DNA of 64,000 nucleotides from Candidatus Thorarchaeota archaeon (GCA_019057475.1 DXJO01000020.1:113412-177411); one strand, 5' to 3'. Positions 49,783-63,998 are shown, counted from the stretch's first letter. Numbers and translations are program-made. The notes: generated by a model not told the origin, from the sequence alone.

Positions 49783-49934
49783 CCGTTGCCCGAAACCTAG
49801 ACGATCCTGGACATCATATTCCATGATCGATGTTCGGTTCCTGATTCATCAAGGTTGCATCGTAAATCCTTGACCTACGACGTCTAACGACCTTTCCAAC
49901 AGGCGTTTTAAGTCTCCGTGCAACTCGCGGCGAC
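49783..49934 (-). repeat. Dispersed structured non-coding element, copy B (diverged)
   Basis: Aligns to 11607-11763 with conserved blocks (GTCGCCGC, ACGGAGAC, AAAACGCCT, ATGAATCAGGAACCGAACATC, GTTTCGGGC-ACGG). Confidence 0.85.
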
Positions 49935-50092
49935 AATAGAGTTAGTTCATGGACTTGGTTCTTGTCCTGAATCGGCTCCATACCCTAGTATTCCATCTGG
50001 ACTTTATATGCACCAATAATAAAATGTGCAGCAATGTCTAGGTTTTTAGCAGCTGTTGGCAACCTCACAAAGCCCACGATTGCAGTGGTCCC

Positions 50093-51415
50093 TTACATGA
50101 ATCTCAAATGTGCATATGCGGGCGTGTCAGTGTCGAAAGCATAGTGGACTTTCTGATAGTCCTTTCTAAACTCTGCAACTTCAGCTGCAATCTTGTTCAC
50201 ATCCTCACCTTTCATGACGACACGATGCATGAGCTCTGCGATTGCATCCATCTCAGACTCCTTCATGCCCAGTCTCGTCATCTCGCTTGTTCCCAGTCGA
50301 ATTCCACCGGGTGTCTTGTAGTCGCGCCCCATCTTCTTGTCCCATGGCAGAAGGTTACGATTGATCACAATGTTCGCGTTTTCCAGCTCTTCTTCCACCG
50401 TTCGACCGTTTTTCATTGGTGAGTCTGATATGTCCGCTAGAACCACATGGGATTCGGTGAAGCCCTTGTGTTCTGCAATCACTTTCCATCCTCTCTCGTG
50501 GAGCGCCTGTGCCAGAGCTTTGGCATTCTTGAGTATCTGGTCCATGTATGCATCTCCAAACTCAGTCAGCTCAGCGAGTACTACTGCAAGTCCAGCCACG
50601 TTGTGGAGATGGTGATTACTAAGCATCCCTGGGAATGATGCCTTCTTAATCGGTTCGGCGAACTCAGCCTTGGATAAAACAATGCCGTGCTGCGGGCCAG
50701 GCATAGTCTTATGCGTTGAGGCAGTCATGATGTCTGCACCCTCCCTCAACGGGTCTTGAAACAGTCCTGCTGCAATCAGACCTGAAACGTGCGCTGAGTC
50801 ATAGCCAATCTTCATTTCGTACTCGTCAGCAATCTCTCGAAACTCCTTCACCGGATGTGGGAATGGGAATACACTGCCACCGAAGAGCAAGAGCTTGATC
50901 TCCTTCCCGTCTGCATGCATTTTCTTAATCAGCTTCATGCTTGCATCCACATCGATGTTGAACTCATTATCGTCAAAGATCCAGTTCCTCACTTTGTGGC
51001 CTCTTATTGCTCCAGCAGTTCCCCCCAGGTTCTTCCTAGCATGAGAGATGTGTCCGCCATGTGCGATTGAAAGAGCCATCATCCTATCGAGGGGTGCCAT
51101 AACTGCTGTGTACATCACCAGATTAGCGACTACTCCGGACACCGGCCGCACGTCAGCAAACTCTGCTTTGAACAGTCTCTCAGCGAGTTCTATGCAGATT
51201 AGCTCCACCTCATCGATGTACTTACAGCCTGCATACACCCTCTCTCCCGGCCAGCCCTCTGCATAGCGGTCTCGAAAGTCACTGACTATCGCAGACCTAA
51301 CGGCTGGTGATGACACATTCTCTGATGCAATGAGGTTGATTGTATTCTGCATCCATGTGTCATGTTTCTCTAAGAGTCCAAATACTTCATCGTAAAGCTT
51401 CTTGTGGTCGCTCAA
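50093..51415 (-). CDS. glyA: Serine hydroxymethyltransferase
   Basis: NLIASEN, RYAEG, GGHISH, STHKT, GIRLGT; TTG start after AAGGAGG. Confidence 0.96.
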   Translation of the reverse strand: MSDHKKLYDEVFGLLEKHDTWMQNTINLIASENVSSPAVRSAIVSDFRDRYAEGWPGERVYAGCKYIDEVELICIELAERLFKAEFADVRPVSGVVANLVMYTAVMAPLDRMMALSIAHGGHISHARKNLGGTAGAIRGHKVRNWIFDDNEFNIDVDASMKLIKKMHADGKEIKLLLFGGSVFPFPHPVKEFREIADEYEMKIGYDSAHVSGLIAAGLFQDPLREGADIMTASTHKTMPGPQHGIVLSKAEFAEPIKKASFPGMLSNHHLHNVAGLAVVLAELTEFGDAYMDQILKNAKALAQALHERGWKVIAEHKGFTESHVVLADISDSPMKNGRTVEEELENANIVINRNLLPWDKKMGRDYKTPGGIRLGTSEMTRLGMKESEMDAIAELMHRVVMKGEDVNKIAAEVAEFRKDYQKVHYAFDTDTPAYAHLRFM

Positions 51416-51496
51416 ACATAGAGCCTCCTTATCCTGAAGACGTTGGCCGCTAGACTTCGGTTTGTTATATGACTTATGCAACCTACGTAGTCAACA

Positions 51497-51979
51497 TTAG
51501 AGAACCCAGCCCCAAAAGGTGACTATGAACATGGCTTCGCCCGGGAAGTAAACTAGTGCTCCAAATGGCACTCTAACAACGTTCTTAGGCACATCAACTA
51601 CTGGAATTGTTGACCCGAGATAATCATATGGTTCCTCAGGTCCTCCAAGACGATCTGTCACTAAATCTATTGCATAGTCATTAGTCATCCAGGGTGACCA
51701 TGCAAGAAAACCAAGAATTACTAAAATCAATACAATCTTTGATTTGTGTGACCTCACAAAACTGGTTCCCGACCTTAGATGTGGCTTCTGCGAATAGAGA
51801 ACGAGTACCACACCAAGAGGCATAAAGAGTAGCATGAACCAGCCCAACATAATAAACACAATACCTATCCATAGAAGTCTTCTCCCCCCAAGCCGCACCA
51901 AACCCGGTCTTGATTCAGCTGCCGGAAGGCGACAAACTCTCTTAATCACATTGAATTCATCTAGTTGTTCTATTTCCAT
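51497..51979 (-). CDS. Hypothetical membrane protein
   Basis: Hydrophobic segments; coupled to upstream HTH gene. Confidence 0.55.
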   Translation of the reverse strand: MEIEQLDEFNVIKRVCRLPAAESRPGLVRLGGRRLLWIGIVFIMLGWFMLLFMPLGVVLVLYSQKPHLRSGTSFVRSHKSKIVLILVILGFLAWSPWMTNDYAIDLVTDRLGGPEEPYDYLGSTIPVVDVPKNVVRVPFGALVYFPGEAMFIVTFWGWVL

Positions 51980-52437
51980 TGCAATTGCCTCATTATCAAT
52001 TTGAAAAGTTTCTCACCAAGTCGAGTAGGTGCCAAGTCTTTCGGCAGAGGAATCTCCCATTCTTCTGCTAAGTTCCGAAGCACTTCGTCGCAATTTTCCA
52101 TCATGTCACAGCTATCACAATCACCCCTGTGTGAAAACCAAACTTGGACTCCCATCTTATGAGAGTAGGTGATGTATGTTAAGGAATCATGAGCGTGACA
52201 ATAACCCACCGCAAAACCGTATTCTGGGCTCATGTTTTGGAGAACAATGCGGCTCACTTTTGCTGTATGTCTAAGAAGACTCTCAATTCGCTCTTCCGCT
52301 ATTCTCTGCGCTTGACTCACATATGGTCTTGAAACCGCTAATTCCTTGGCGATGTCCGACGGCAGATTATTCTGCCTTCTTCTCAGCCAGATAGTACTCT
52401 GTTGCTTTGTTGGATAGCGAATTCCGATGGACATCAT
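51970..52437 (-). CDS. HTH transcriptional regulator with Cys/His C-terminal domain
   Basis: SDIAKELAVSRPYVSQ HTH; H..DC.SC...C. Confidence 0.75.
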   Translation of the reverse strand: MMSIGIRYPTKQQSTIWLRRRQNNLPSDIAKELAVSRPYVSQAQRIAEERIESLLRHTAKVSRIVLQNMSPEYGFAVGYCHAHDSLTYITYSHKMGVQVWFSHRGDCDSCDMMENCDEVLRNLAEEWEIPLPKDLAPTRLGEKLFKLIMRQLQWK

Positions 52438-52456
52438 TGATCCCCGCGAGTAGCAG

Positions 52457-52518
52457 TTAACTGATTTCGTGCAACTCCGGACAGCTCACTCATATAAATT
52501 AACCGATTTCATGCAACT
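52457..52518. promoter_or_regulatory. Two 20-bp direct repeats flanking the TATA box of the HTH gene (putative operator)
   Basis: TTAACTGATTTCGTGCAACT (52457) and TTAACCGATTTCATGCAACT (52499), 42-bp period; minus-strand TTTATATG at 52491-52498. Confidence 0.7.
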
Positions 52519-52720
52519 ATCTAATGAAATTCATTTTAACCTGAAGACGTTGGGCGCTAGACCTGTCTTCGTTATGTGACTTACGACAAGACGAAAGCCG
52601 GCAATACCGCAATCCCTATAAACCAAGAGAAGCGAACGACCGTTCCGTGGGCCAGTGGCTACCCAGGGAGAGTTCATAGACTTCAACTGGATAGAGATGA
52701 AGGGGAGTTTGGGCCAAGCT

Positions 52721-55700
52721 TTAGTAATCCCTGAAGAATATCACTCCCTCTTTCAAAAGGATGTTCTTAACTTCCTCAATGACCCTTTCAATGGTTTCAT
52801 CATCAATACTATACTGCTCAAGCTTTTCTCCAACCTCTCGTTCTATGAGATCAGGGTCTACCCCACCTGCCATCTCTGTCCAACCCTGATAGGTGTGTAT
52901 CCACTGTGTAACTTGAATAGAAACATACTCGCTCTCTTCGGCGACGAAGTTCGCAACTATCACCTGTCCTCCAGCCGCATCCCTTGTTATATCCACTGAT
53001 TCAAATTGTAGTCCTGCAATTTCCTTCTCTTGGATAAGAGAGAGATGGTCTTCAATCTCTTTGTCGACCAACTGTTTCATTATTTTGCTATCAGAGAACC
53101 CTCCTTGATCCAGTACTTCCTCCATTCCTTCCTTCAAGAGTGAAGATAGATGTTCTCTCTCTAGCATCTCAACTTTGGGCACAATAACTATGTGGACCAT
53201 CTTTTGAAGAGTAAGCTCAGATACAAGTCTAAATTCAACTCGATCTTCGAATCTCTTTATCTCAGGACTCCAACCATCAAGGAGGTAGATTCCTGGGTAT
53301 ATTGCTCTCTCCTTTCTCCAACGCATAACGTGTATAGATTCTCTGAACTCCCTAGGCAAGTCTTTGGACTCTGGAATCCGAATATCATACCACATCCATT
53401 GGCCGTCATAAGCACGATAGGAAATCGCACCTGTTTCAAGAAACGCTGCAAGAGCTGGACCGGTGAACTTGATCTGTTCTAGTTCTCTGATCTCTTCAGG
53501 AACCTTATCATCGGAGTAGAAAGTTATTCTCCAACAAGCGCCATGTCTGTATATTGACTCGTTGAATAATGGCTCCGGTTGTCCAGGGTGACCGTCTACA
53601 TCTTGCAGGTATTCAATAACCCTCTTGGTTGCCTTGGAGTGTTTTGTTATGCTCTCAAGATTCTGACTTCTCAGTGGACAAATATGATAATCATGACTGA
53701 TTTTAATTCTCTGAACAACACCTTTACTGAAACTAAGGAATGCTTCAGCCGTAGGTGGAAGTGATACTGATTCAATCTTGAAAGGGTCACTCCTAAGGAC
53801 GAAAGGTCGTAGGATTTTCACATCCTCATCAAATTCGATATCATCAAACCTGTTCCACACATAGTGGTTTTCATCTATGACAACTGGCTCGCATGAAAAA
53901 TCAGGCCGTCGTAAGATCTCAAGTACATCCACAGTTCTTTTGATTAGTAACTGTCCAATCTCATCCTCACTCCCATGATTTAGTAATGAAATCCTGAACA
54001 TTTGCGCTTCATGGTCTAAGTACACATGACACTTAACAGATATACAATCTCGGAACACAGCTGAAATGAGACCGAGACCTACTTTGATATAATCTGCAAG
54101 ATTCCTTGGTGGCGCCCTGATATTGTTTCCAGCTACCCCTAGAAGAGTTGAGTCATCTCTCAGAGTCATCGACATGAGGAGTGTGACAGTTTCGCGTCTT
54201 CGTCTGTAATACTCGATTCTCCCCACTGGCAACCAATTCGAAGTCTTTCCATTGTAAACCCAGAGACCTTGAATCCCCCTTTGAGTGGCAACCATAATGT
54301 CTATTCCCTGTTCAGGGTCCACTCGTTCTGACAATTCCCTGAGTAAAGTCAGATCGCTTGTTCCCCAGAAGGGTTTGTTTCTGCAGAATCCTTTCAAAAC
54401 ATCAAGAATCAAACCCTCTTTCCCAGAGGGACGTCTAAGGTAAATCATACTCATTTCATGACTGCCTAGATTTGTCTGAAAGGTCAAAAAGAGCTGCTGT
54501 GGACTATCACTATTATTCCTCTCTACAAAACATGCTCGACCAAAGAGAACATCACTTACTTGCTCTCCTCTCAGGATTTTCTTCAGACCTTTAGCTCTCT
54601 CTCTTAACCGATCGATAAGTTTTGTTCTATGGAGAAACGACTCTCCAGTATTATGTTGAGAGTGGTATTCTGGACTGAAGCCCACACCTATCAACTGAAA
54701 GGGTACGAGATAGTTCCAGAGCTTTTCTATCAGACTTCTAGGTGAATCGAGAGTTCCTGATTCATAGAGTGATATCAGGAGAAGAAGGAAGAGATGGTTG
54801 CCAACTATTAGTAACAGGTCTGGGTCTTTAGCAAGAAGTTTCTTCAGTTCTATCTTCTGATTCTCTAAGAGGCCATCTGAAATCCATGAACGTTGTTTCT
54901 TCAAGGCCATCCAAATTTCCTTACTCAAATCATGAGTTTCGAGGAATACACGGATTGTTCTTAGAACGTTAAACACATCACTCTGCAAATACCCATCAAC
55001 TAATTTCCCATCAACAAGTCTGTCCAGAGATTCAAGAAACTCTTTCCATTCTTTTTTATCACCATGTCGTTTCGCAATTGTTTTAGCTATGCGTCTTATC
55101 CCACTAAGCTCTTTTCTAACCAGAGTCAATCTATTGGAACCGTAAAATTTCAGTAGACCAATATGTGGTGGTCGTGTGGTTTTCCTTGGAGGGGTTCTGT
55201 GCAAACGAGTTACCCTGTACTCTCTTGTATGGTTTATCATTTCCAACGGTTCAAGCTTTTTCACTCGACCATCTGCATCAACAGAGGTCTGATGCTGATA
55301 TGGCTCGAAGACAACCCTCGAAAGGAGTGACGGTGGATTAGAACTAACACCGGAGGGTTCTTTCTTCTGAATCAAGAATTGGCTCTCTTCTTCGGAATCT
55401 GCCTTCTGATAGAATCTGCTGAGATGTGGAACCAGCTCAAGCACATCATTATTATCATCCTCACAATAGTTTCTAAGATAGCCCTTTCTTATGGAAGAAT
55501 AATTGGACCTAAGATAGAACACTTGTTGCTTGTCTATATTCTTCTCCCGATTATTATCAGGTCTAAACTTTTCTCCCCATTGGTACAATGGTGTAATCAA
55601 AACAGGGTCAATGCTGAAATCATTCTTTCTCTCAGTCACAACCCATCTGACATCATCATCTACAGGAACATAGGATCCATATCTCCTCGGAGCCATAGGC

Positions 55701-58120
55701 AAGTTGTAGACAATCTCATTAATTACCTGCATCCATGGACTGCTTGGATAAAAGGGGGCGACACATCGAGTATCATACTTCTGACTCGTCTGACTCAGCG
55801 GTACAGGTCTATCGAACCAGAGTACTGTTAAACGACGAGGCATCTTCTCGATAAACCAAAGTAAAAACTCATCAAGAAAAGATTTCTTTTGTTTTGAGGT
55901 ACTTCTTCTAACTTTATCCAAACCTGTAACAACAATGAATGGTCTTCTCTTATTCCTGAGGCTCACACTCAGTTCTCTGCCAATAGTTTCAAGAGTATCC
56001 CTTTCATTTACATATGATGAAAGAGGTTCTGACATATCAACGAAGGTTATCTTCTTCCTCAATAGCCTCCGAATGCTTTTCGAATGAAGACTGGCTCGGA
56101 GGTTTTGTTCTCTCAAGCCAGGACTCTTGAATTCGCCTGCAAAGTCAAACCACACAATATCCCTATGCTTTCCTCTCACTCGTTCATGGATATATTTCAG
56201 TCCATGCCAATTGGCAGCTATCTCTGCCGCAGACTGAGAAGGAGATCCTTTCCCTGACACTGTGAGGTACAGAATAAACTCTCTGTCATCATCACGAAAT
56301 CTTGAATACTGGAAAGGATTGAACTCTTGGATGTTAGCAGTTGGAATTGTATTTCTATTCTCACAGTCACTATATACTACAAGTCCCATTCTGAAACTCT
56401 TATCCCCCAATGTAGGATAGAAGAGCTGCCCCTTCGAAAATGCATCATCTTGTGAGTTACTGTACGCTTTGAGAATCAGATTTCTGATGTTACTCCTTAG
56501 GGTTTCCCAATTCTCCTTTAAATCAACAACGAGCACTCCTTTCATCAGCCTTTCAGGAGGACTGACATCACTCCGTACGTATTTCCTATAACTAGAGAGT
56601 ATGACTTTCTCATATGCATCAAGCTGCTTCCTTCCATAGACAGTTGGAGTTGAGTCGATGACATCTTGCCACTCCATATCCTCTGACTTTCTCCTATCCA
56701 TGATTGGTTCAACAACTCTTCTGTTCAGGTCCTTTGACTTTGTAGATGTTGCATACAGGTCAAGTTTGTAGAAACACTTGGTCTTGACTTCGATGAGAAT
56801 ACACGGTTCCCAGATAGTAACTGGACTTGACTCATCAGCTCTCTCCAAATTCTTTCTTCGAAAAACGAGAATATCGACCCGTCCTCTGCCATCAGCCACA
56901 GTAACCTCGCAGGTAAACAAGAAATCAGTTTCTTCTGTGACCATTTCGTCACCATGCCTGATTGAGCCAAAAAGTGAAAATGGCTGAACTGAGAAGTTTG
57001 AGTTGGCAATGAAATCATGAAAAGCAGAGCCCATCATCCGACTGCTTTCGAGCAGGCTCTTCATTGCATGCTCTGCATCAGCTCGAGTCAGTATCCCATT
57101 CTTAACTAGGGACATCACCTTTTCCACATGAACCCTCCACTCCGGATGAAGGTCCAAGTCACACCGTTCTGTTACATCTGAGAAGAAAGTGTCCAGCTCA
57201 TCCTCACTCACATCTTCAGGGTCGGAGGCATCTACTTCTCTTGGCTCATCATCCATGATTGCTTCTAATTGGTCTGGCTCATTGGCAATTAGTGATTCTG
57301 CTATTGCGTGATCCTCTGTTCTTGCATCCATCAAATGACTTGAAATTTCCCCGGTAATCGATGGAGGTCGACCGTTCACACCACCATACACCGCTCGGAT
57401 CTCATGAACAATTTCTCGAAGCTCTCTTACCCCTTTATGGATGAATCCCTTCTCTCCCCTCTTCCTCTCAGTGTAAACATATTCGAGATAGGGCACGAGT
57501 CGCTCGATGAGACCGTCAAGGTATCGTTTTGCATCCCTTATGGGGACTGAATATTTCATGCATTGTCTAGCAAGCTCGATACCATGACTTCTGATCATAT
57601 CCACGAAATCGAGCTCCGGAGTAGTATGAGTTGGGATATACTTTGGAATCCGAGCACTTCCTGGATAGATTCGTTTCACACTCTTAGCTTTGGTGATTAT
57701 CCGCACTGGTGTTGGGAATGGAAACCCTGATGCTCCAAGGTTTCTGATTCTTGCACCGTAATAGTCAGCGAGGATATTGATGTATTTTCGATCCTCTTTC
57801 CGTCTTCTTCTCTTCTCCTCAACATTCCCGTAAGGAACAGATGTATTCAGTACAATCTTGTTGTGGTTGCGACGGATGTTATTCTCCACACGCTGAAGGT
57901 GCCTTGCGTCTGGTCTTCTCTCCTTTACGGATCTCTGATAGTCTAGGAGGGCATCCTTCAGAATCTTCCTGATTCCCTTTCGACCCTTTCCTCCCCAGTA
58001 GAGGTGTTTTGTAGTTTTTGTTACCCTTCCTCTAGCTAGATATGCCGTTGCTGTTAGACCAGATTGCAGCGCTTTAGTGAGAACCTTCCCAGGGTTTTTT
58101 GGGAAACCTGCGTTTTTCAT
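52721..58120 (-). CDS. Giant multidomain protein: diverged Cas1-like domain + PD-(D/E)xK (Cas4/RecB-like) nuclease + degenerate P-loop domain
   Basis: E109/H165/D171/D174 in Cas1-like contexts; GRVD416...E444VK...QLDAY; SGKGSPSQS and IVVTGLD; 1799 uninterrupted codons. Confidence 0.75.
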   Translation of the reverse strand: MKNAGFPKNPGKVLTKALQSGLTATAYLARGRVTKTTKHLYWGGKGRKGIRKILKDALLDYQRSVKERRPDARHLQRVENNIRRNHNKIVLNTSVPYGNVEEKRRRRKEDRKYINILADYYGARIRNLGASGFPFPTPVRIITKAKSVKRIYPGSARIPKYIPTHTTPELDFVDMIRSHGIELARQCMKYSVPIRDAKRYLDGLIERLVPYLEYVYTERKRGEKGFIHKGVRELREIVHEIRAVYGGVNGRPPSITGEISSHLMDARTEDHAIAESLIANEPDQLEAIMDDEPREVDASDPEDVSEDELDTFFSDVTERCDLDLHPEWRVHVEKVMSLVKNGILTRADAEHAMKSLLESSRMMGSAFHDFIANSNFSVQPFSLFGSIRHGDEMVTEETDFLFTCEVTVADGRGRVDILVFRRKNLERADESSPVTIWEPCILIEVKTKCFYKLDLYATSTKSKDLNRRVVEPIMDRRKSEDMEWQDVIDSTPTVYGRKQLDAYEKVILSSYRKYVRSDVSPPERLMKGVLVVDLKENWETLRSNIRNLILKAYSNSQDDAFSKGQLFYPTLGDKSFRMGLVVYSDCENRNTIPTANIQEFNPFQYSRFRDDDREFILYLTVSGKGSPSQSAAEIAANWHGLKYIHERVRGKHRDIVWFDFAGEFKSPGLREQNLRASLHSKSIRRLLRKKITFVDMSEPLSSYVNERDTLETIGRELSVSLRNKRRPFIVVTGLDKVRRSTSKQKKSFLDEFLLWFIEKMPRRLTVLWFDRPVPLSQTSQKYDTRCVAPFYPSSPWMQVINEIVYNLPMAPRRYGSYVPVDDDVRWVVTERKNDFSIDPVLITPLYQWGEKFRPDNNREKNIDKQQVFYLRSNYSSIRKGYLRNYCEDDNNDVLELVPHLSRFYQKADSEEESQFLIQKKEPSGVSSNPPSLLSRVVFEPYQHQTSVDADGRVKKLEPLEMINHTREYRVTRLHRTPPRKTTRPPHIGLLKFYGSNRLTLVRKELSGIRRIAKTIAKRHGDKKEWKEFLESLDRLVDGKLVDGYLQSDVFNVLRTIRVFLETHDLSKEIWMALKKQRSWISDGLLENQKIELKKLLAKDPDLLLIVGNHLFLLLLISLYESGTLDSPRSLIEKLWNYLVPFQLIGVGFSPEYHSQHNTGESFLHRTKLIDRLRERAKGLKKILRGEQVSDVLFGRACFVERNNSDSPQQLFLTFQTNLGSHEMSMIYLRRPSGKEGLILDVLKGFCRNKPFWGTSDLTLLRELSERVDPEQGIDIMVATQRGIQGLWVYNGKTSNWLPVGRIEYYRRRRETVTLLMSMTLRDDSTLLGVAGNNIRAPPRNLADYIKVGLGLISAVFRDCISVKCHVYLDHEAQMFRISLLNHGSEDEIGQLLIKRTVDVLEILRRPDFSCEPVVIDENHYVWNRFDDIEFDEDVKILRPFVLRSDPFKIESVSLPPTAEAFLSFSKGVVQRIKISHDYHICPLRSQNLESITKHSKATKRVIEYLQDVDGHPGQPEPLFNESIYRHGACWRITFYSDDKVPEEIRELEQIKFTGPALAAFLETGAISYRAYDGQWMWYDIRIPESKDLPREFRESIHVMRWRKERAIYPGIYLLDGWSPEIKRFEDRVEFRLVSELTLQKMVHIVIVPKVEMLEREHLSSLLKEGMEEVLDQGGFSDSKIMKQLVDKEIEDHLSLIQEKEIAGLQFESVDITRDAAGGQVIVANFVAEESEYVSIQVTQWIHTYQGWTEMAGGVDPDLIEREVGEKLEQYSIDDETIERVIEEVKNILLKEGVIFFRDY

Positions 58121-58308
58121 TATAACAATGGTTTTATCATTACCTTATATATATTCATTTTATTGAGTATTGTCCATTATCTATTCTCCCATTTATCGCA
58201 GATAATGGCCGGTATCATAGATTTCCAGCGTTTCCATTTTCTAGTCTTGGTAAATTTAAATATATTATGAGAATATAATATTCTGTGGAATATTGAGAGT
58301 GGTGGCCG

Positions 58309-60456
58309 ATGATTAAGCAACAAAAAGCCCGGCGTCGTCCCCGGGAGCAAACGCAGTCTATGACTGAAGAGCAACATACAATGGATGACAAATTTAAATA
58401 TCCATCATCGGGAACGCCAAAAACGGGGCTAAGATATCTCACCGAGTCATTCACTCTCAATTCAGTAGAACGAATTGTGCAGAAACAAGGGAAAGGAAGA
58501 AAGCCTAAACCTATGTTTGGCACAGTTGATGGCATTCAGAAAGGAATTGAAAAGACCACAGGTCGAAAGGTCAAAGATGTTGATGTTCTTCTTCTTGGAG
58601 AGCGTTTCGCAGTCTATGTCAAACTCGTGAATATGGTCCTTGAGCGGGTCTATGTATCTGATGATAGAGCTGAATCAGTTGGCAGACAATTGTCCGAGCA
58701 TCGAGGAAAGGGATATAGCTTCCTGAAGAATTTGAAGTACCTCAGGTACAGGGACAATGAAGAGATTAAGACCATTTGCTTTGAGAGGATGTATCGAAAC
58801 GCCTTGGAACAGGCAGCAAGAATCATCCTGTCCGACTGGAAACGACGACAGCTAATGACTACTGCTCTGTCTGTTCTATATAGGGATGAAGAACTACTCC
58901 TGAAGCTTCTGAAGAACAAATACATCTCTTCTTTGCTGGTAAAAACAATCCGAAAGGAATGTGAAATAGTCAAGTCCAACGGGAAGAGTTACTACTATGT
59001 AGTTTCAGTCCTGAAGCAGCTTCGCCGCATATTGGATGAGAAGATACTCACAGAACGAGGAGAACCTCCTCGATTCAGGAAGAGTCAGCGAGTGCGAGTA
59101 AAGAAGTTTCTTGGAGAGGACTTAGACTCAATCATGGCTATAGTCCGGCCAACAGTGACTCAATGGTATAGAGATGGGTATCCTTTCTCTGTTCCAAAGA
59201 TGTTCTCGTTCTCAGAGGACTTTTCAGCTGGATCTGAGAGCAATATCGGACAGGGTTACTGGTATAGTGTTGACAGGAGTCCAGATCGCGAGAACGAGAT
59301 ACTGTTCTTTCTTAAGCTTCCTGAACCTCTTAATGGCGTGGAGCACAATGATTCTCCTTATCGCACAAAGACCTTGAGTTTTCGGTTCCTTGATTGGCTT
59401 CCTCGTGCGGCACAAAAGGATTCGAAGAAAGCTAACAGAGCCGAGAGAGATGGACATTACCAACGAGCAAAACAACTTCGATTTCGAGCTGCAAAGTTCA
59501 ATGACATGCATCAACAACTAATGAACACTATCGAATGCCAACACACCGCCTATCAACTCAAGCGACTCAAAGGTAGAAAGAACGTAGACACCGAGAAGAT
59601 CATACGACTGGAAGCCCGATTGACAGAATTGAATAGTTCCAGGAAATGCAAACCTCCACAGCTCGTGCTTCGCGAACACAAAGTCACCCTATATCTTCCG
59701 TTCCTACCACCTACTTACAAGGTAATAGAAACGACTCTTGGCAAGAAGAAGTATCATCGACGAGCAGGTGCTGATAGGGGTCTCCGTGTCCCCATTGCGG
59801 TATCTGTTCAGAAGGATGGCAGATACGTCGATAAACTCATTGAGATGAATGAGCTCCTGAAGAAGCGCATGCGGTTGCATGAGGACACAAAGTGGTTGCA
59901 GTCTGAGATAACAAGAACGCAGAACAATTGGGAAAGGAAGCATCCGGATTCATCCTATCCCTCTCACATCCTCAAGAAGCGACGACATCATGATGCGATA
60001 TGGGGAAGAATACGAAGGATTGATAGAGAGATTGCCCGTCAAGTCGCGTCAAGATTGGTCTGGTTCTGTGAGGAACATGAGGTCAAGACAATTGTCTTCG
60101 AGAATCTGAAGAACTATTCTGCTCCGTCTGGCTTCAAAAACCTCTCTTGGAATCTTACCGCTAACCTCTTTTCAAAAGTGTTTGAAACTGTTCGTTACAT
60201 GCGTCGGAGCATGGGTCATAATTATGGCGGTGTATGGACAGTCAGTCCTGCATGGACATCTCAGACCTGCCATCAGTGTGGTGAGATTGGTATCCGAGTT
60301 GCGAATGAAATCTCAACTTCCGAAATGAAAAGAGGTGAGTTCTTCTACTGCGTAGAGTGTAACGAGCATTTCCATGCTGATATCAATGCTTCACGAAACA
60401 TAATTCATGTTCAGCAAAAGAAAATGTCCAGTGCCGTTCCTGGACGGTCAGCTTGA
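58309..60456 (+). CDS. tnpB: Large TnpB/Cas12f-like RNA-guided RuvC nuclease
   Basis: RuvC-I GAD489RG, RuvC-II FE598NL, TSQTCHQCG...CVEC Zn finger, RuvC-III HAD691INASRNI; start may be 58360 or 58381. Confidence 0.88.
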   Translation: MIKQQKARRRPREQTQSMTEEQHTMDDKFKYPSSGTPKTGLRYLTESFTLNSVERIVQKQGKGRKPKPMFGTVDGIQKGIEKTTGRKVKDVDVLLLGERFAVYVKLVNMVLERVYVSDDRAESVGRQLSEHRGKGYSFLKNLKYLRYRDNEEIKTICFERMYRNALEQAARIILSDWKRRQLMTTALSVLYRDEELLLKLLKNKYISSLLVKTIRKECEIVKSNGKSYYYVVSVLKQLRRILDEKILTERGEPPRFRKSQRVRVKKFLGEDLDSIMAIVRPTVTQWYRDGYPFSVPKMFSFSEDFSAGSESNIGQGYWYSVDRSPDRENEILFFLKLPEPLNGVEHNDSPYRTKTLSFRFLDWLPRAAQKDSKKANRAERDGHYQRAKQLRFRAAKFNDMHQQLMNTIECQHTAYQLKRLKGRKNVDTEKIIRLEARLTELNSSRKCKPPQLVLREHKVTLYLPFLPPTYKVIETTLGKKKYHRRAGADRGLRVPIAVSVQKDGRYVDKLIEMNELLKKRMRLHEDTKWLQSEITRTQNNWERKHPDSSYPSHILKKRRHHDAIWGRIRRIDREIARQVASRLVWFCEEHEVKTIVFENLKNYSAPSGFKNLSWNLTANLFSKVFETVRYMRRSMGHNYGGVWTVSPAWTSQTCHQCGEIGIRVANEISTSEMKRGEFFYCVECNEHFHADINASRNIIHVQQKKMSSAVPGRSA

Positions 60457-60545
60457 CTTTCATGTCAAGATGTTCCATCTAACAATGATCGGTTAGTGGC
60501 TTAGCAGGATGGTTCGGTTCATTCAAAAGAATAAGGTGGCGGGCC
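60425..60545 (+). ncRNA. Putative omega-RNA-like scaffold and guide at tnpB 3' end
   Basis: Hairpins CCGT/ACGG, CTTGAC/GTCAAG, CCATC/GATGG enclosing CTAAC/GTTAG, ending GGTTCA-TTCA. Confidence 0.5.
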
Positions 60546-60613
60546 GGGCGGGATTCGAACCCGCGGCCAACAAGTTAAGAGCCTGTCGCTCTACCGGGCT
60601 GAGCCACCGGCCC
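60537..60613 (-). tRNA. tRNA-Lys(CTT), encoded CCA
   Basis: GGGCCGG/CCGGCCC acceptor; ACAGG-CTCTTAA-CTTGT; GTTCGAATC. Confidence 0.96.
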
Positions 60614-60837
60614 ATGATTTCGCATCTCTCCTGTTTTGGGTTATAGAGGTTTCGGAATGTTATGGGAATAGAAGGACCTATTTCTGAGAAGGCCTTTCGA
60701 AATATTTCAATCCACTCCTGACCCATAGAACCGATTTTTTGGATTCCTTGATTAAATCAGATATCCTATTTGGTTTTCAGAGTATTACACAGGAAACTTC
60801 TTCTTGCGGGTAGCTCTTATCTTTAGAGGTGATTAGG

Positions 60838-61539
60838 ATGCGTGGGGAATCCCATCTTCTTGTTTCAATACTCATCAGTCTCCCTACGAGCATGGTATTG
60901 TTCAATTTACTTCCTTCTGAGAATTTCAATGCTATTATCTATCTACTGGGGGGAGTTATGATAGGCAGTTTACTTCCTGATGTTGACGCTTCTGATGCTA
61001 AGGTCATGCATGGATACTGGAAACCTATAGGGCTGTTTGGAAAATACCTATTCTATAAGCCCATGACATGGGTTCTACGGAGCAGATCTGAATCATTTCA
61101 GGAACAACATCGTGGTTATCTACACTCGCTTATTGGATGTTTATTAGCAACTGTGTTCTTTGCAATTCCGATTGGGGTTATTTTTCTGGTTTCCATATTT
61201 CTCTGGACGGTTTCAATAGAGCTCGCATCCCTCATCTGGTATCTTTGGATTGGCCTACCGTTTGGTTTCTTGATGCATCTTTTTGAAGACAGTTTCACCA
61301 AGTCAGGGGTTCGCTGGTTCTTTCCAAGAGGCAAGGCATACTCCGGTCAAACAAGAACAGGAAAGAGAAGTGAGTACAACCTCACATCGGCATTCTTCAT
61401 CCTCTATGGTCTGATGACAATATTCGTGTGGATGCAACCCGCTAGTTACGAATTATTACTTGGGACTATCTTGGGGTCAATATTACTTCTAGGTGTTCTC
61501 TATGCTGTCAATCCGATAATAAGCAAGCTCAGTCAGTAG
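60838..61539 (+). CDS. YdjM-like membrane metal-dependent hydrolase
   Basis: SH, GSLLPDVD, HRGYLHS, HLFEDSFT.SGV. Confidence 0.85.
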   Translation: MRGESHLLVSILISLPTSMVLFNLLPSENFNAIIYLLGGVMIGSLLPDVDASDAKVMHGYWKPIGLFGKYLFYKPMTWVLRSRSESFQEQHRGYLHSLIGCLLATVFFAIPIGVIFLVSIFLWTVSIELASLIWYLWIGLPFGFLMHLFEDSFTKSGVRWFFPRGKAYSGQTRTGKRSEYNLTSAFFILYGLMTIFVWMQPASYELLLGTILGSILLLGVLYAVNPIISKLSQ

Positions 61540-61594
61540 AAAATCGAATTCTCAGGAAACAATCATTAGGTCAAACAAGAAATCGAATTCCTTC

Positions 61595-61900
61595 TTGCTA
61601 TGGTACCTCCTTCCTCTAGCTGGGATTCCAGCCCTAGCTCTTACCAAGCTCAAGTCCACACCGCGTTTTGGCCATACTTCAATAGCATGCCTATCCATCG
61701 GGCTTGTCATCATTGGTATGGTATCTCTAGCGGCTCTTGTTGTTGCTTACTCAAGTTGGCTTGTAATTGACACCAGTGGCGAGAACTACGCAACACCCTT
61801 CTCACTGCTCGGCCTAAGTTCTGGCATTCTTATCCTTTCAAGCACGATTGCATATGCTTTGACTCAAAACGATAAGGAAAGCCATCTTGTAGATGATTGA
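61595..61900 (+). CDS. Hypothetical membrane protein or fragment
   Basis: Three hydrophobic segments; TTG start without clear SD. Confidence 0.35.
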   Translation: MLWYLLPLAGIPALALTKLKSTPRFGHTSIACLSIGLVIIGMVSLAALVVAYSSWLVIDTSGENYATPFSLLGLSSGILILSSTIAYALTQNDKESHLVDD

Positions 61901-62055
61901 CTCGCATTTTCAAATTCCTCCCAGCCCACCATCCTCACTCTGCAAACAATCACTGAGCAAGGAAACCGATTGTCCTCGAGTAGACGTTATGGTTTCAACT
62001 TCCAGAACACATTTTACGAGCAACTGAAAATGTGTTTTGGCGGGTTCGACAAGGA

Positions 62056-63895: not shown

Positions 63896-63998
63896 CCGTT
63901 GCCCGAAACTTGTACAATCATGGACATCAATGTCCTTGACTGATGTTCGGTTCCTGATTCATTGAGGTCTGCTCTGCAGATCCTACTGAATCTGCGAC
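63896..63998 (-). repeat. Dispersed structured non-coding element, copy C (cut by window end)
   Basis: 100/103 identity to 11661-11763 in reverse complement. Confidence 0.9.

Follow-up and report, generated by a model that had tools for sequence, protein, structure and literature searches.

Two groups of TnpB in Asgard archaea are linked to aCas1 (Cas1H-Asgard-1 and -2), a likely transposase, and a 9-nt motif is given behind tnpB of these loci in the portion of Altae-Tran 2023 (PMC10691335) consulted here. Casposases, furthermore, target tRNA genes, and the catalytic set of Cas1 from Escherichia coli consists of E141, H208, D218 and D221 (PMC9939771). Here we describe a stretch of 64,000 nt from Candidatus Thorarchaeota archaeon (GCA_019057475.1 DXJO01000020.1:113412-177411; hereafter called the window), in which a gene of the aCas1 family encoding a giant protein of 1799 residues adjoins a gene for TnpB. 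By computation, we found a Cas1 fold at the N-terminus of the giant protein with a conserved register of active-site residues, a pairing of the giant gene with TnpB, a bias of the loci toward tRNA genes, and a tRNA-Lys gene split by an insert that carries a tRNA-Lys of its own. We consider it probable that the giant protein contains a helical-only Cas1 integrase (E79/H165/D171/D174) belonging to a two-gene element of Thorarchaeota, giant aCas1 plus TnpB.

The family of the window shares with the published aCas1-TnpB loci an Asgard host, a diverged Cas1 adjoining TnpB, two TnpB types and flanking repeats. The 9-nt motif occurs without mismatch behind tnpB in ten loci of the family with a short TnpB; in the window, where TnpB is of the long type, it is not in register and occurs only as a one-mismatch look-alike at 60517-60525, which is absent from close relatives. 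Given the published groups and the motif in ten loci of the family, therefore, the element is, as judged from its locus features, a member of a kind already catalogued. aCas1 is reportedly also a subject of Makarova et al. 2020. In the portion of PMC10691335 consulted, however, there is no mention of tRNA targeting, of tRNA splitting with a carried tRNA, of a tRNA-matching guide, of a Cas1 lacking its beta-domain, or of the residue register. The additions made here are a corrected register, with E79 as the putative catalytic Glu, and, much more tentatively, a sign that residues ~991-1169 might be another Cas1-like domain, without activity.

Fold and active site of the N-terminal domain

A first-pass annotation of the window had proposed a Cas1-like active site composed of E109, H165 and D174, and its statements on the sequence were correct: translation of the open reading frame (ORF) places E109, H165, D171 and D174 as described, and an acidic linker follows, although just beyond the range 57340-58120 given for the domain. 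The E/H/D motif by itself is no more than expected by chance, a loose E..H..DxxD/ExxK/R pattern being present in 100 of 1919 proteins of the same genome; the fold and the conservation exceed chance. Neither Pfam and NCBIfam scans of the 1799-residue protein nor a PDB sequence search with the N-terminal domain gave a Cas1 match, and PF01867 was touched by only 3 of 96 homologues, in line with the proposal that this Cas1-like domain is compact and escapes standard profiles.

An AlphaFold model of residues 1-266, built on an alignment of 32 sequences, is mainly helical with a mean predicted local distance difference test score (pLDDT) of 86, its confidence falling below 50 from residue 249. When the model was compared with 48,161 solved chains, rows 1-12 were all Cas1 or casposase (Z 11.3-7.1), and the highest-scoring unrelated chain reached Z 6.3; the first 17 rows of a second structure comparison were likewise all of the Cas1 family. 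The best match was Cas1 of A. fulgidus (4n06_B; Z 11.3, root-mean-square deviation (rmsd) 3.9, 182 aligned residues), while casposase 6opm scored Z 9.5 (up to 10.3 over both comparisons) and E. coli Cas1 Z 7.1-7.4. Structure prediction has thus borne out the proposed Cas1-like fold. A weak Cas2 match of the domain (E 0.2) was set aside because the matching stretch is helical in the model.

The structural matches start around residue 84-113 of stand-alone Cas1 chains and at residue 1-11 of the model, which begins with helix 10-30; therefore, only the catalytic helical domain of Cas1 is present. The N-terminal beta-domain of Cas1 makes the Cas1 dimer. This beta-strand dimerisation domain is absent from the N-terminus of the giant protein; residues 312-880 and 1620-1799 lie outside the models, where a displaced copy is possible.

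A profile search gave 132 relatives, of which an alignment of 96 rows (34% mean column identity) was made, and a second set, 88 genes taken directly from genome sequences, overlaps the first in part. In the 96-row alignment, H165 is invariant, D171 is kept in 94 rows and D174 in 92, with Glu in the other four; E79 is conserved in 93 of 94, R104, N115 and R177 in all 96, and E101 in 90. E109, which had been equated with E141 of E. coli, is Glu in only 54 of the 96 homologues (63/83 in the genome-cut set). E79 is Glu in 74/74 of the genome-cut set, where the whole conservation picture is the same. When the family profile was aligned by hhalign with 28 canonical Cas1 proteins, about 100 columns matched (P 0.0009-0.005; score 27.3, against a maximum of 22.2 for decoys from 60 shuffles): the canonical catalytic Glu lines up with E79, R104 and N115 take the positions of the invariant Arg/Asn pair, and D171 and D174 those of the two acidic residues of Cas1 (Asp and Glu). 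Also, a bridging homologue (P0104) matches the canonical Cas1 profile over the Glu helix (E 1.2e-5 in a 184-sequence search), and its Glu aligned to the catalytic Glu is in the E79 column. The spacing of E79, R104 and N115, at 25 and 11 residues, agrees with the 23-25 and 10 of canonical Cas1. If E79 is the Glu, the long Asn-bearing helix that Cas1 has between its Glu helix and His loop corresponds to helix 100-132 of the model.

The assignments of H165, D171 and D174, which keep the order of Cas1, can thus be retained, but that of E109 is rejected: this residue is variable and sits within the next helix, and E79 fits instead. E101 was likewise ruled out as the catalytic Glu, since the profile alignments and P0104 put E79 there; it may help at the active site. 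The expected shortening of the spacing applies from His to D174 (9-11 residues, versus 13 in E. coli and 15 in an archaeal set), whereas the Glu-to-His distance is longer (median 88 versus 64-66 in the Cas1 sets). From these alignments, the metal site is likely to be composed of E79, H165, D171 and D174, and the conservation of all four residues suggests a catalytically intact domain.

Could the Cas1 likeness be a convergent helical bundle, or the site a non-catalytic, DNA-binding remnant? The protein has no sequence match in Pfam, NCBIfam or PDB; Foldseek with the model returned Cas1 in all of its top 6 rows, but at E 0.09-0.3, which is not significant (>0.001); the hhalign probability is 9-22%; and a search of the ESM Atlas with the domain gave no Cas1 row. 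All twelve Cas1-family representatives nonetheless outrank every other chain, one homologue matches the Cas1 profile directly, and the conserved residues (Glu, Arg, Asn, His and the acidic pair) follow one another as they do in Cas1, which makes convergence or a remnant highly improbable. Two further points speak against our interpretation of this domain. A Z of 11 is below the caution level of the tool for helical folds (about 13), with rmsd of 3.5-4.7 and identity of 7-14%; taken alone the value is borderline, and the weight is carried by the uninterrupted run of Cas1-family rows together with the agreement of the sequence. In addition, the canonical His falls near residues 152-154 in the hhalign alignment instead of at H165. 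The most divergent members have no hairpin near 152-154 and keep a His 6-8 residues ahead of the first Asp, and H165 is therefore the best equivalent, given the shortened loop. Judging from the model and the profile together, residues 1-245 are very probably a true Cas1 homologue.

A split tRNA-Lys gene and the TnpB partner

In the window, a 9.2-kb insert divides the host tRNA-Lys gene, and relatives keep an intact tRNA-Lys at the site. In two genomes of the same genus (G391 and G393), the sequence left of 52661 continues into an intron-containing tRNA-Lys, and in G393 this empty site runs on into the DNA found at 61912 onward. Contigs of independent samples join 52660 to 61939 (run X2) or leave the window at 52660/52661, and run X2 also holds a different insert at 52661. 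The insert contains the giant gene, tnpB, a tRNA-Lys, a YdjM-family gene and a 101-aa ORF only. A decayed piece of about 20 nt from the tRNA 5' end is found on both sides of the gene pair and may be a guide.

The tnpB gene is head-to-head with the giant gene across a gap of 188 nt, and its 715-aa product scores under the curated cut-offs. The gene is followed by a conserved end motif and 20 nt resembling the 5' end of tRNA-Lys, an arrangement that recurs at five more Lys loci, namely L068, L069, L108, L112 and L178. The 11-nt core of this predicted guide matches the host-type tRNA-Lys in full and the carried tRNA-Lys at 9 of 11 positions, the first guide bases having drifted in the window copy; in a Thr locus, 13 of 14 nt match between the tRNA and the sequence behind the end motif. 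The predicted 3' region of the guide RNA folded no better than shuffles (z -0.7), and an Rfam scan hit the tRNA only.

The aCas1 family was found in 52 of 400 genomes of the phylum, with up to nine matches each; 48 of the 52 are among the 85 genomes of the same taxonomic family. The giant gene and tnpB are head-to-head in 77 of 88 loci. A tRNA gene of about a dozen kinds lies within 500 nt of an end in 28 of the 88 loci (about 3% expected), and direct repeats flank 7 of 65 loci (0.8% expected) and inverted repeats 4 of 65 (cross-locus controls <1%), although the loci are related, the counts are not independent and the tRNA calls were made at a relaxed threshold, all of which weakens the case for our interpretation. 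Direct repeats of 45-68 bp occur at other loci. The case is also weakened in that neither clean terminal inverted repeats nor a single duplication length was found; no strong inverted repeat was found in the window. The central part of the tRNA gene has given way to the insert, with no duplication of the target, which is unlike a plain Cas1 product. Furthermore, the five family members in the genome of the window are only 28-47% identical; they are therefore old lineages with no sign of recent transposition.

RNA-guided integration, in which the guide would bring TnpB to the tRNA gene and TnpB would in turn attract the giant protein, whose Cas1 domain would insert the element there, much as in a CRISPR-associated transposon (CAST; CRISPR, clustered regularly interspaced short palindromic repeats), would explain the strict head-to-head pairing, the match to a tRNA directly after the end motif at six Lys loci and the Thr locus, the correlation between the identities of giant proteins and long-type TnpBs (rho 0.63), and the use of many different tRNAs by one family. 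CAST effectors are nuclease-dead and are accompanied by TnsB, TnsC and TniQ. The TnpB of the window, in contrast, keeps all three RuvC residues, and the insert has no Tns genes. An ordinary TnpB guide, moreover, is the flank of the right end, and the tRNA match is therefore explained without guided integration. Many loci have no match to the 5' end of the neighbouring tRNA, and TnpB in this family is of two unrelated types (17% identity), which do not follow the tree of the giant proteins (rho 0.04). Guided integration is in our view unlikely; judging by their sequences, the two TnpB types are exchanged among giant-gene lineages.

Also to be weighed is an active but sedentary Cas1 that inserts cassettes or short DNA at tRNA-derived repeats, the tRNA locus being a hotspot of array-like acquisition. 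No CRISPR array was found in 44-64 kb of the window, and the genome, which is 96% complete, gave no match for Cas2, canonical Cas1 or PF01867. The element is also patchily distributed, in 48 of the 85 genomes of the taxonomic family, and occupies many sites, as a mobile element would. Such an integrase would account for separate inserts, bounded by direct repeats of 48-53 bp, at the tRNA-Lys locus (in the window, and one of about 400 bp in G351), for the different insert at 52661, for the tandem repeats of the tRNA 3' half in L081 and L176, and for the old, divergent copies; tRNA genes are nevertheless hotspots for many integrases, and the other inserts therefore need not stem from aCas1. We regard a sedentary integrase as quite unlikely.

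Several other features of the tRNA loci were noticed. The GC content drops from about 0.48-0.49 to 0.42-0.45 across the insert (window 50000-62000). A 48-bp direct repeat (83% identical; 51429-51476 and 52536-52583) is the leader of a serine hydroxymethyltransferase gene, and the two small ORFs between its copies (51497-52437), absent in G393, are a cassette inserted separately, with a long duplication. In L123 (G351), the same tRNA locus has, around 975-1546, an insert of about 400 bp flanked by a 53-bp direct repeat of the tRNA-Lys promoter and first bases. Genes for tRNA-Lys with two introns or odd intron positions, missed by ARAGORN, were seen in L117 (G393; 2043-2160), L113 (G349) and L123. 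In L081, L083, L150, L168 and L176, the element beside a tRNA-Gly is bordered by the complete tRNA gene and by 42-53 bp that copy the 3' half of this gene. For L081 and L176, this repeat extends into the terminus of an older element, which points to serial insertion. As in the window, L186, L143 and L178 carry on the giant-gene side, in inverted orientation, the 5' half of a tRNA (His) or its promoter (Lys), and the same tRNA is intact on the TnpB side.

As for TnpB, 47 members of the short type (about 555 aa; e.g., L071-L073) have Gly at RuvC-II, with a conserved Glu placed shortly ahead of the zinc finger, so that the counts of RuvC-II conservation are distorted for this type. The arrangement resembles that of TnpBs with a rearranged RuvC, and we do not call the short type dead. 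TnpB remnants without a giant gene are present as 3' fragments at the tRNA-Lys locus in L110 (G341; 1437-1866) and L111 (G317), and a solo full-length TnpB without a giant gene exists in the genome of the window (G000 C42:185753-187885).

Remaining parts of the giant protein

In the nuclease region (residues ~345-535), which has the RecB-type Gln-x3-Tyr, G364, H368, D416, K446, Q499 and Y503 are conserved in 165/165 sequences and E405 in 163/165; weak PDDEXK_9 and HSDR_N matches were each obtained in 2 of 73 members. Residues 606-860 might resemble a P-loop domain minus its lysine, but profile searches gave no support for this identity, and such searches of both the nuclease and the P-loop-like domains against PDB gave no match.

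A model of residues 880-1620 (pLDDT 84) has no clear structural match. For residues ~991-1169, five Cas1 chains were among the top 17 rows (Z 4.6-5.7), level with unrelated helical folds, among them TssK and lyases; the stretch has no His or Asp pair, its hhalign scores against Cas1 and against the N-terminal domain were not above decoys, and Cas1 was not among the rows of Foldseek and a second structure comparison with the 880-1620 model. A second, dead Cas1-like domain here is possible but doubtful; if true, it would neatly substitute for the lost dimer partner.

Among distant homologues, P0143 and P0146 (2240-2350 aa) end in TPR repeats. In other Asgard families, L087, L088 and L089 encode proteins of 1320-2160 aa with N-terminal helicase-type motifs, a Cas1 region detectable by Pfam and a divergent neighbouring gene; these proteins gave no bridge to canonical Cas1. 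A 73-nt direct repeat (82% identical; 49783-49855 and 63896-63968, 14 kb apart) is probably paralogous coding sequence.

Table 1. Positions of the features in the window, with the basis of each assignment
Feature	Position	Strand	Basis
Giant aCas1-family gene	52721..58120	minus	ORF, 1799 aa; named homologues are Thorarchaeota
Predicted Cas1 catalytic helical domain without Cas1 N-terminal beta-domain, residues 1-245	57386..58120	minus	AlphaFold model, structure matches, profile match
E79, putative catalytic Glu (E. coli E141)	57884..57886	minus	Conservation; aligned to Cas1 Glu
E109, rejected candidate Glu	57794..57796	minus	Variable; in helix 100-132, not the Glu helix
H165-D171-D174, putative equivalents of E. 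coli H208, D218, D221	57599..57628	minus	Conservation, profile alignment
Acidic, variable linker, residues ~281-312	57185..57280	minus	Sequence; columns unconserved from ~260 on
PD-(D/E)xK nuclease domain, RecB/Cas4 type, apparently intact by sequence	56516..57088	minus	Residue conservation
Conserved domain, degenerate P-loop/RecA-like pattern, no Walker A lysine	55541..56305	minus	Consensus by eye
Helical domain, residues ~991-1169, perhaps another Cas1-like domain, inactive	54614..55150	minus	Weak structure matches
TnpB-family RNA-guided nuclease (predicted), 715 aa	58309..60456	plus	RuvC D489/E598/D691 and zinc finger intact
Conserved end motif (60484-60491) and predicted guide (60492-60511)	60484..60511	plus	Guide resembles tRNA-Lys 5' end
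Intact carried tRNA-Lys(CTT)	60537..60613	minus	Inside insert, absent from empty site
Passenger genes: YdjM-family membrane protein (60829-61539), 101-aa ORF (61595-61900)	60829..61900	plus	Inside insert
5' remnant of host tRNA-Lys, 12 nt exact then decayed	52649..52672	plus	Empty sites of G391, G393
Decayed 3' remnant of host tRNA-Lys	61913..61931	plus	Alignment to G393 empty site

Proposed mechanism and relation to known systems

In the mechanism that we favor, the Cas1 domain would join the 3'-OH ends of the element to a target within a tRNA gene or next to one, in the manner of a casposase, and the fused PD-(D/E)xK nuclease would excise the element or trim its ends, a step at which casposons use a polymerase and CRISPR uses Cas4. 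TnpB, guided by the match to the 5' end of the host tRNA, would cut empty alleles and thereby favor the filled allele, and the carried tRNA, differing within the guide match, would restore tRNA function. Other parts of the giant protein may stand in for the missing dimerisation domain. A stronger version, namely a single-chain Cas1 pseudo-dimer in which the inactive residues ~991-1169 replace the beta-domain dimer and which the tRNA-matching guide of TnpB steers as an RNA-programmable integrase with multi-kilobase cargo, is very unlikely.

Casposases (M. mazei 6opm; A. boonei) resemble the window protein in the Cas1 fold and the four catalytic residues, in the presumed role of a stand-alone integrase without Cas2, and in the preference for tRNA genes (PMC9939771). 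Casposons are also marked by terminal inverted repeats and a target duplication of 13-27 bp. The insert differs from casposons in that its terminal inverted repeats are not clear and its Cas1 lacks the N-terminal beta-domain, and in having no PolB gene, the protein-primed family B polymerase by which casposons are recognized being absent from its gene content; also, the Cas1 domain is fused to about 1550 more residues and paired with TnpB. CRISPR Cas1 (E. coli; A. fulgidus 4n06) shares the helical catalytic domain and the residue order, but the window has neither array nor Cas2, its His loop is 3-6 residues shorter and its Glu-to-His distance about 23 residues longer. A Cas4-Cas1 fusion (7mi4) similarly has a RecB/Cas4-type nuclease in the same chain, although the nuclease of the window protein comes after Cas1, not before it. 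With IS200/IS605 and IS607 elements, the window shares a transposase-like gene head-to-head with tnpB and a guide behind a conserved right-end motif; it lacks their Y1 or serine transposase, and its TnpB is 715 aa long and below the cut-offs. By this comparison, the element most likely works like a casposase but is neither a casposon nor a CRISPR Cas1.

While the aCas1 family itself is already catalogued, the present analysis supplies the correct targets for mutation, with E79 in place of E109, whose alanine control (E109A) would probably have kept its activity and so misled. It also supplies a minimal domain (residues 1-245), a natural target (the 5' end of tRNA-Lys, with the breakpoint at 52660/52661), matched empty sites and a candidate guide. 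A Cas1 that is functional without its beta-domain, or one steered by TnpB, would if true be a new integrase architecture useful for genome engineering. In the aCas1-TnpB elements, both ancestors of type V CRISPR, namely the Cas1 integrase and TnpB, are united in one mobile element.

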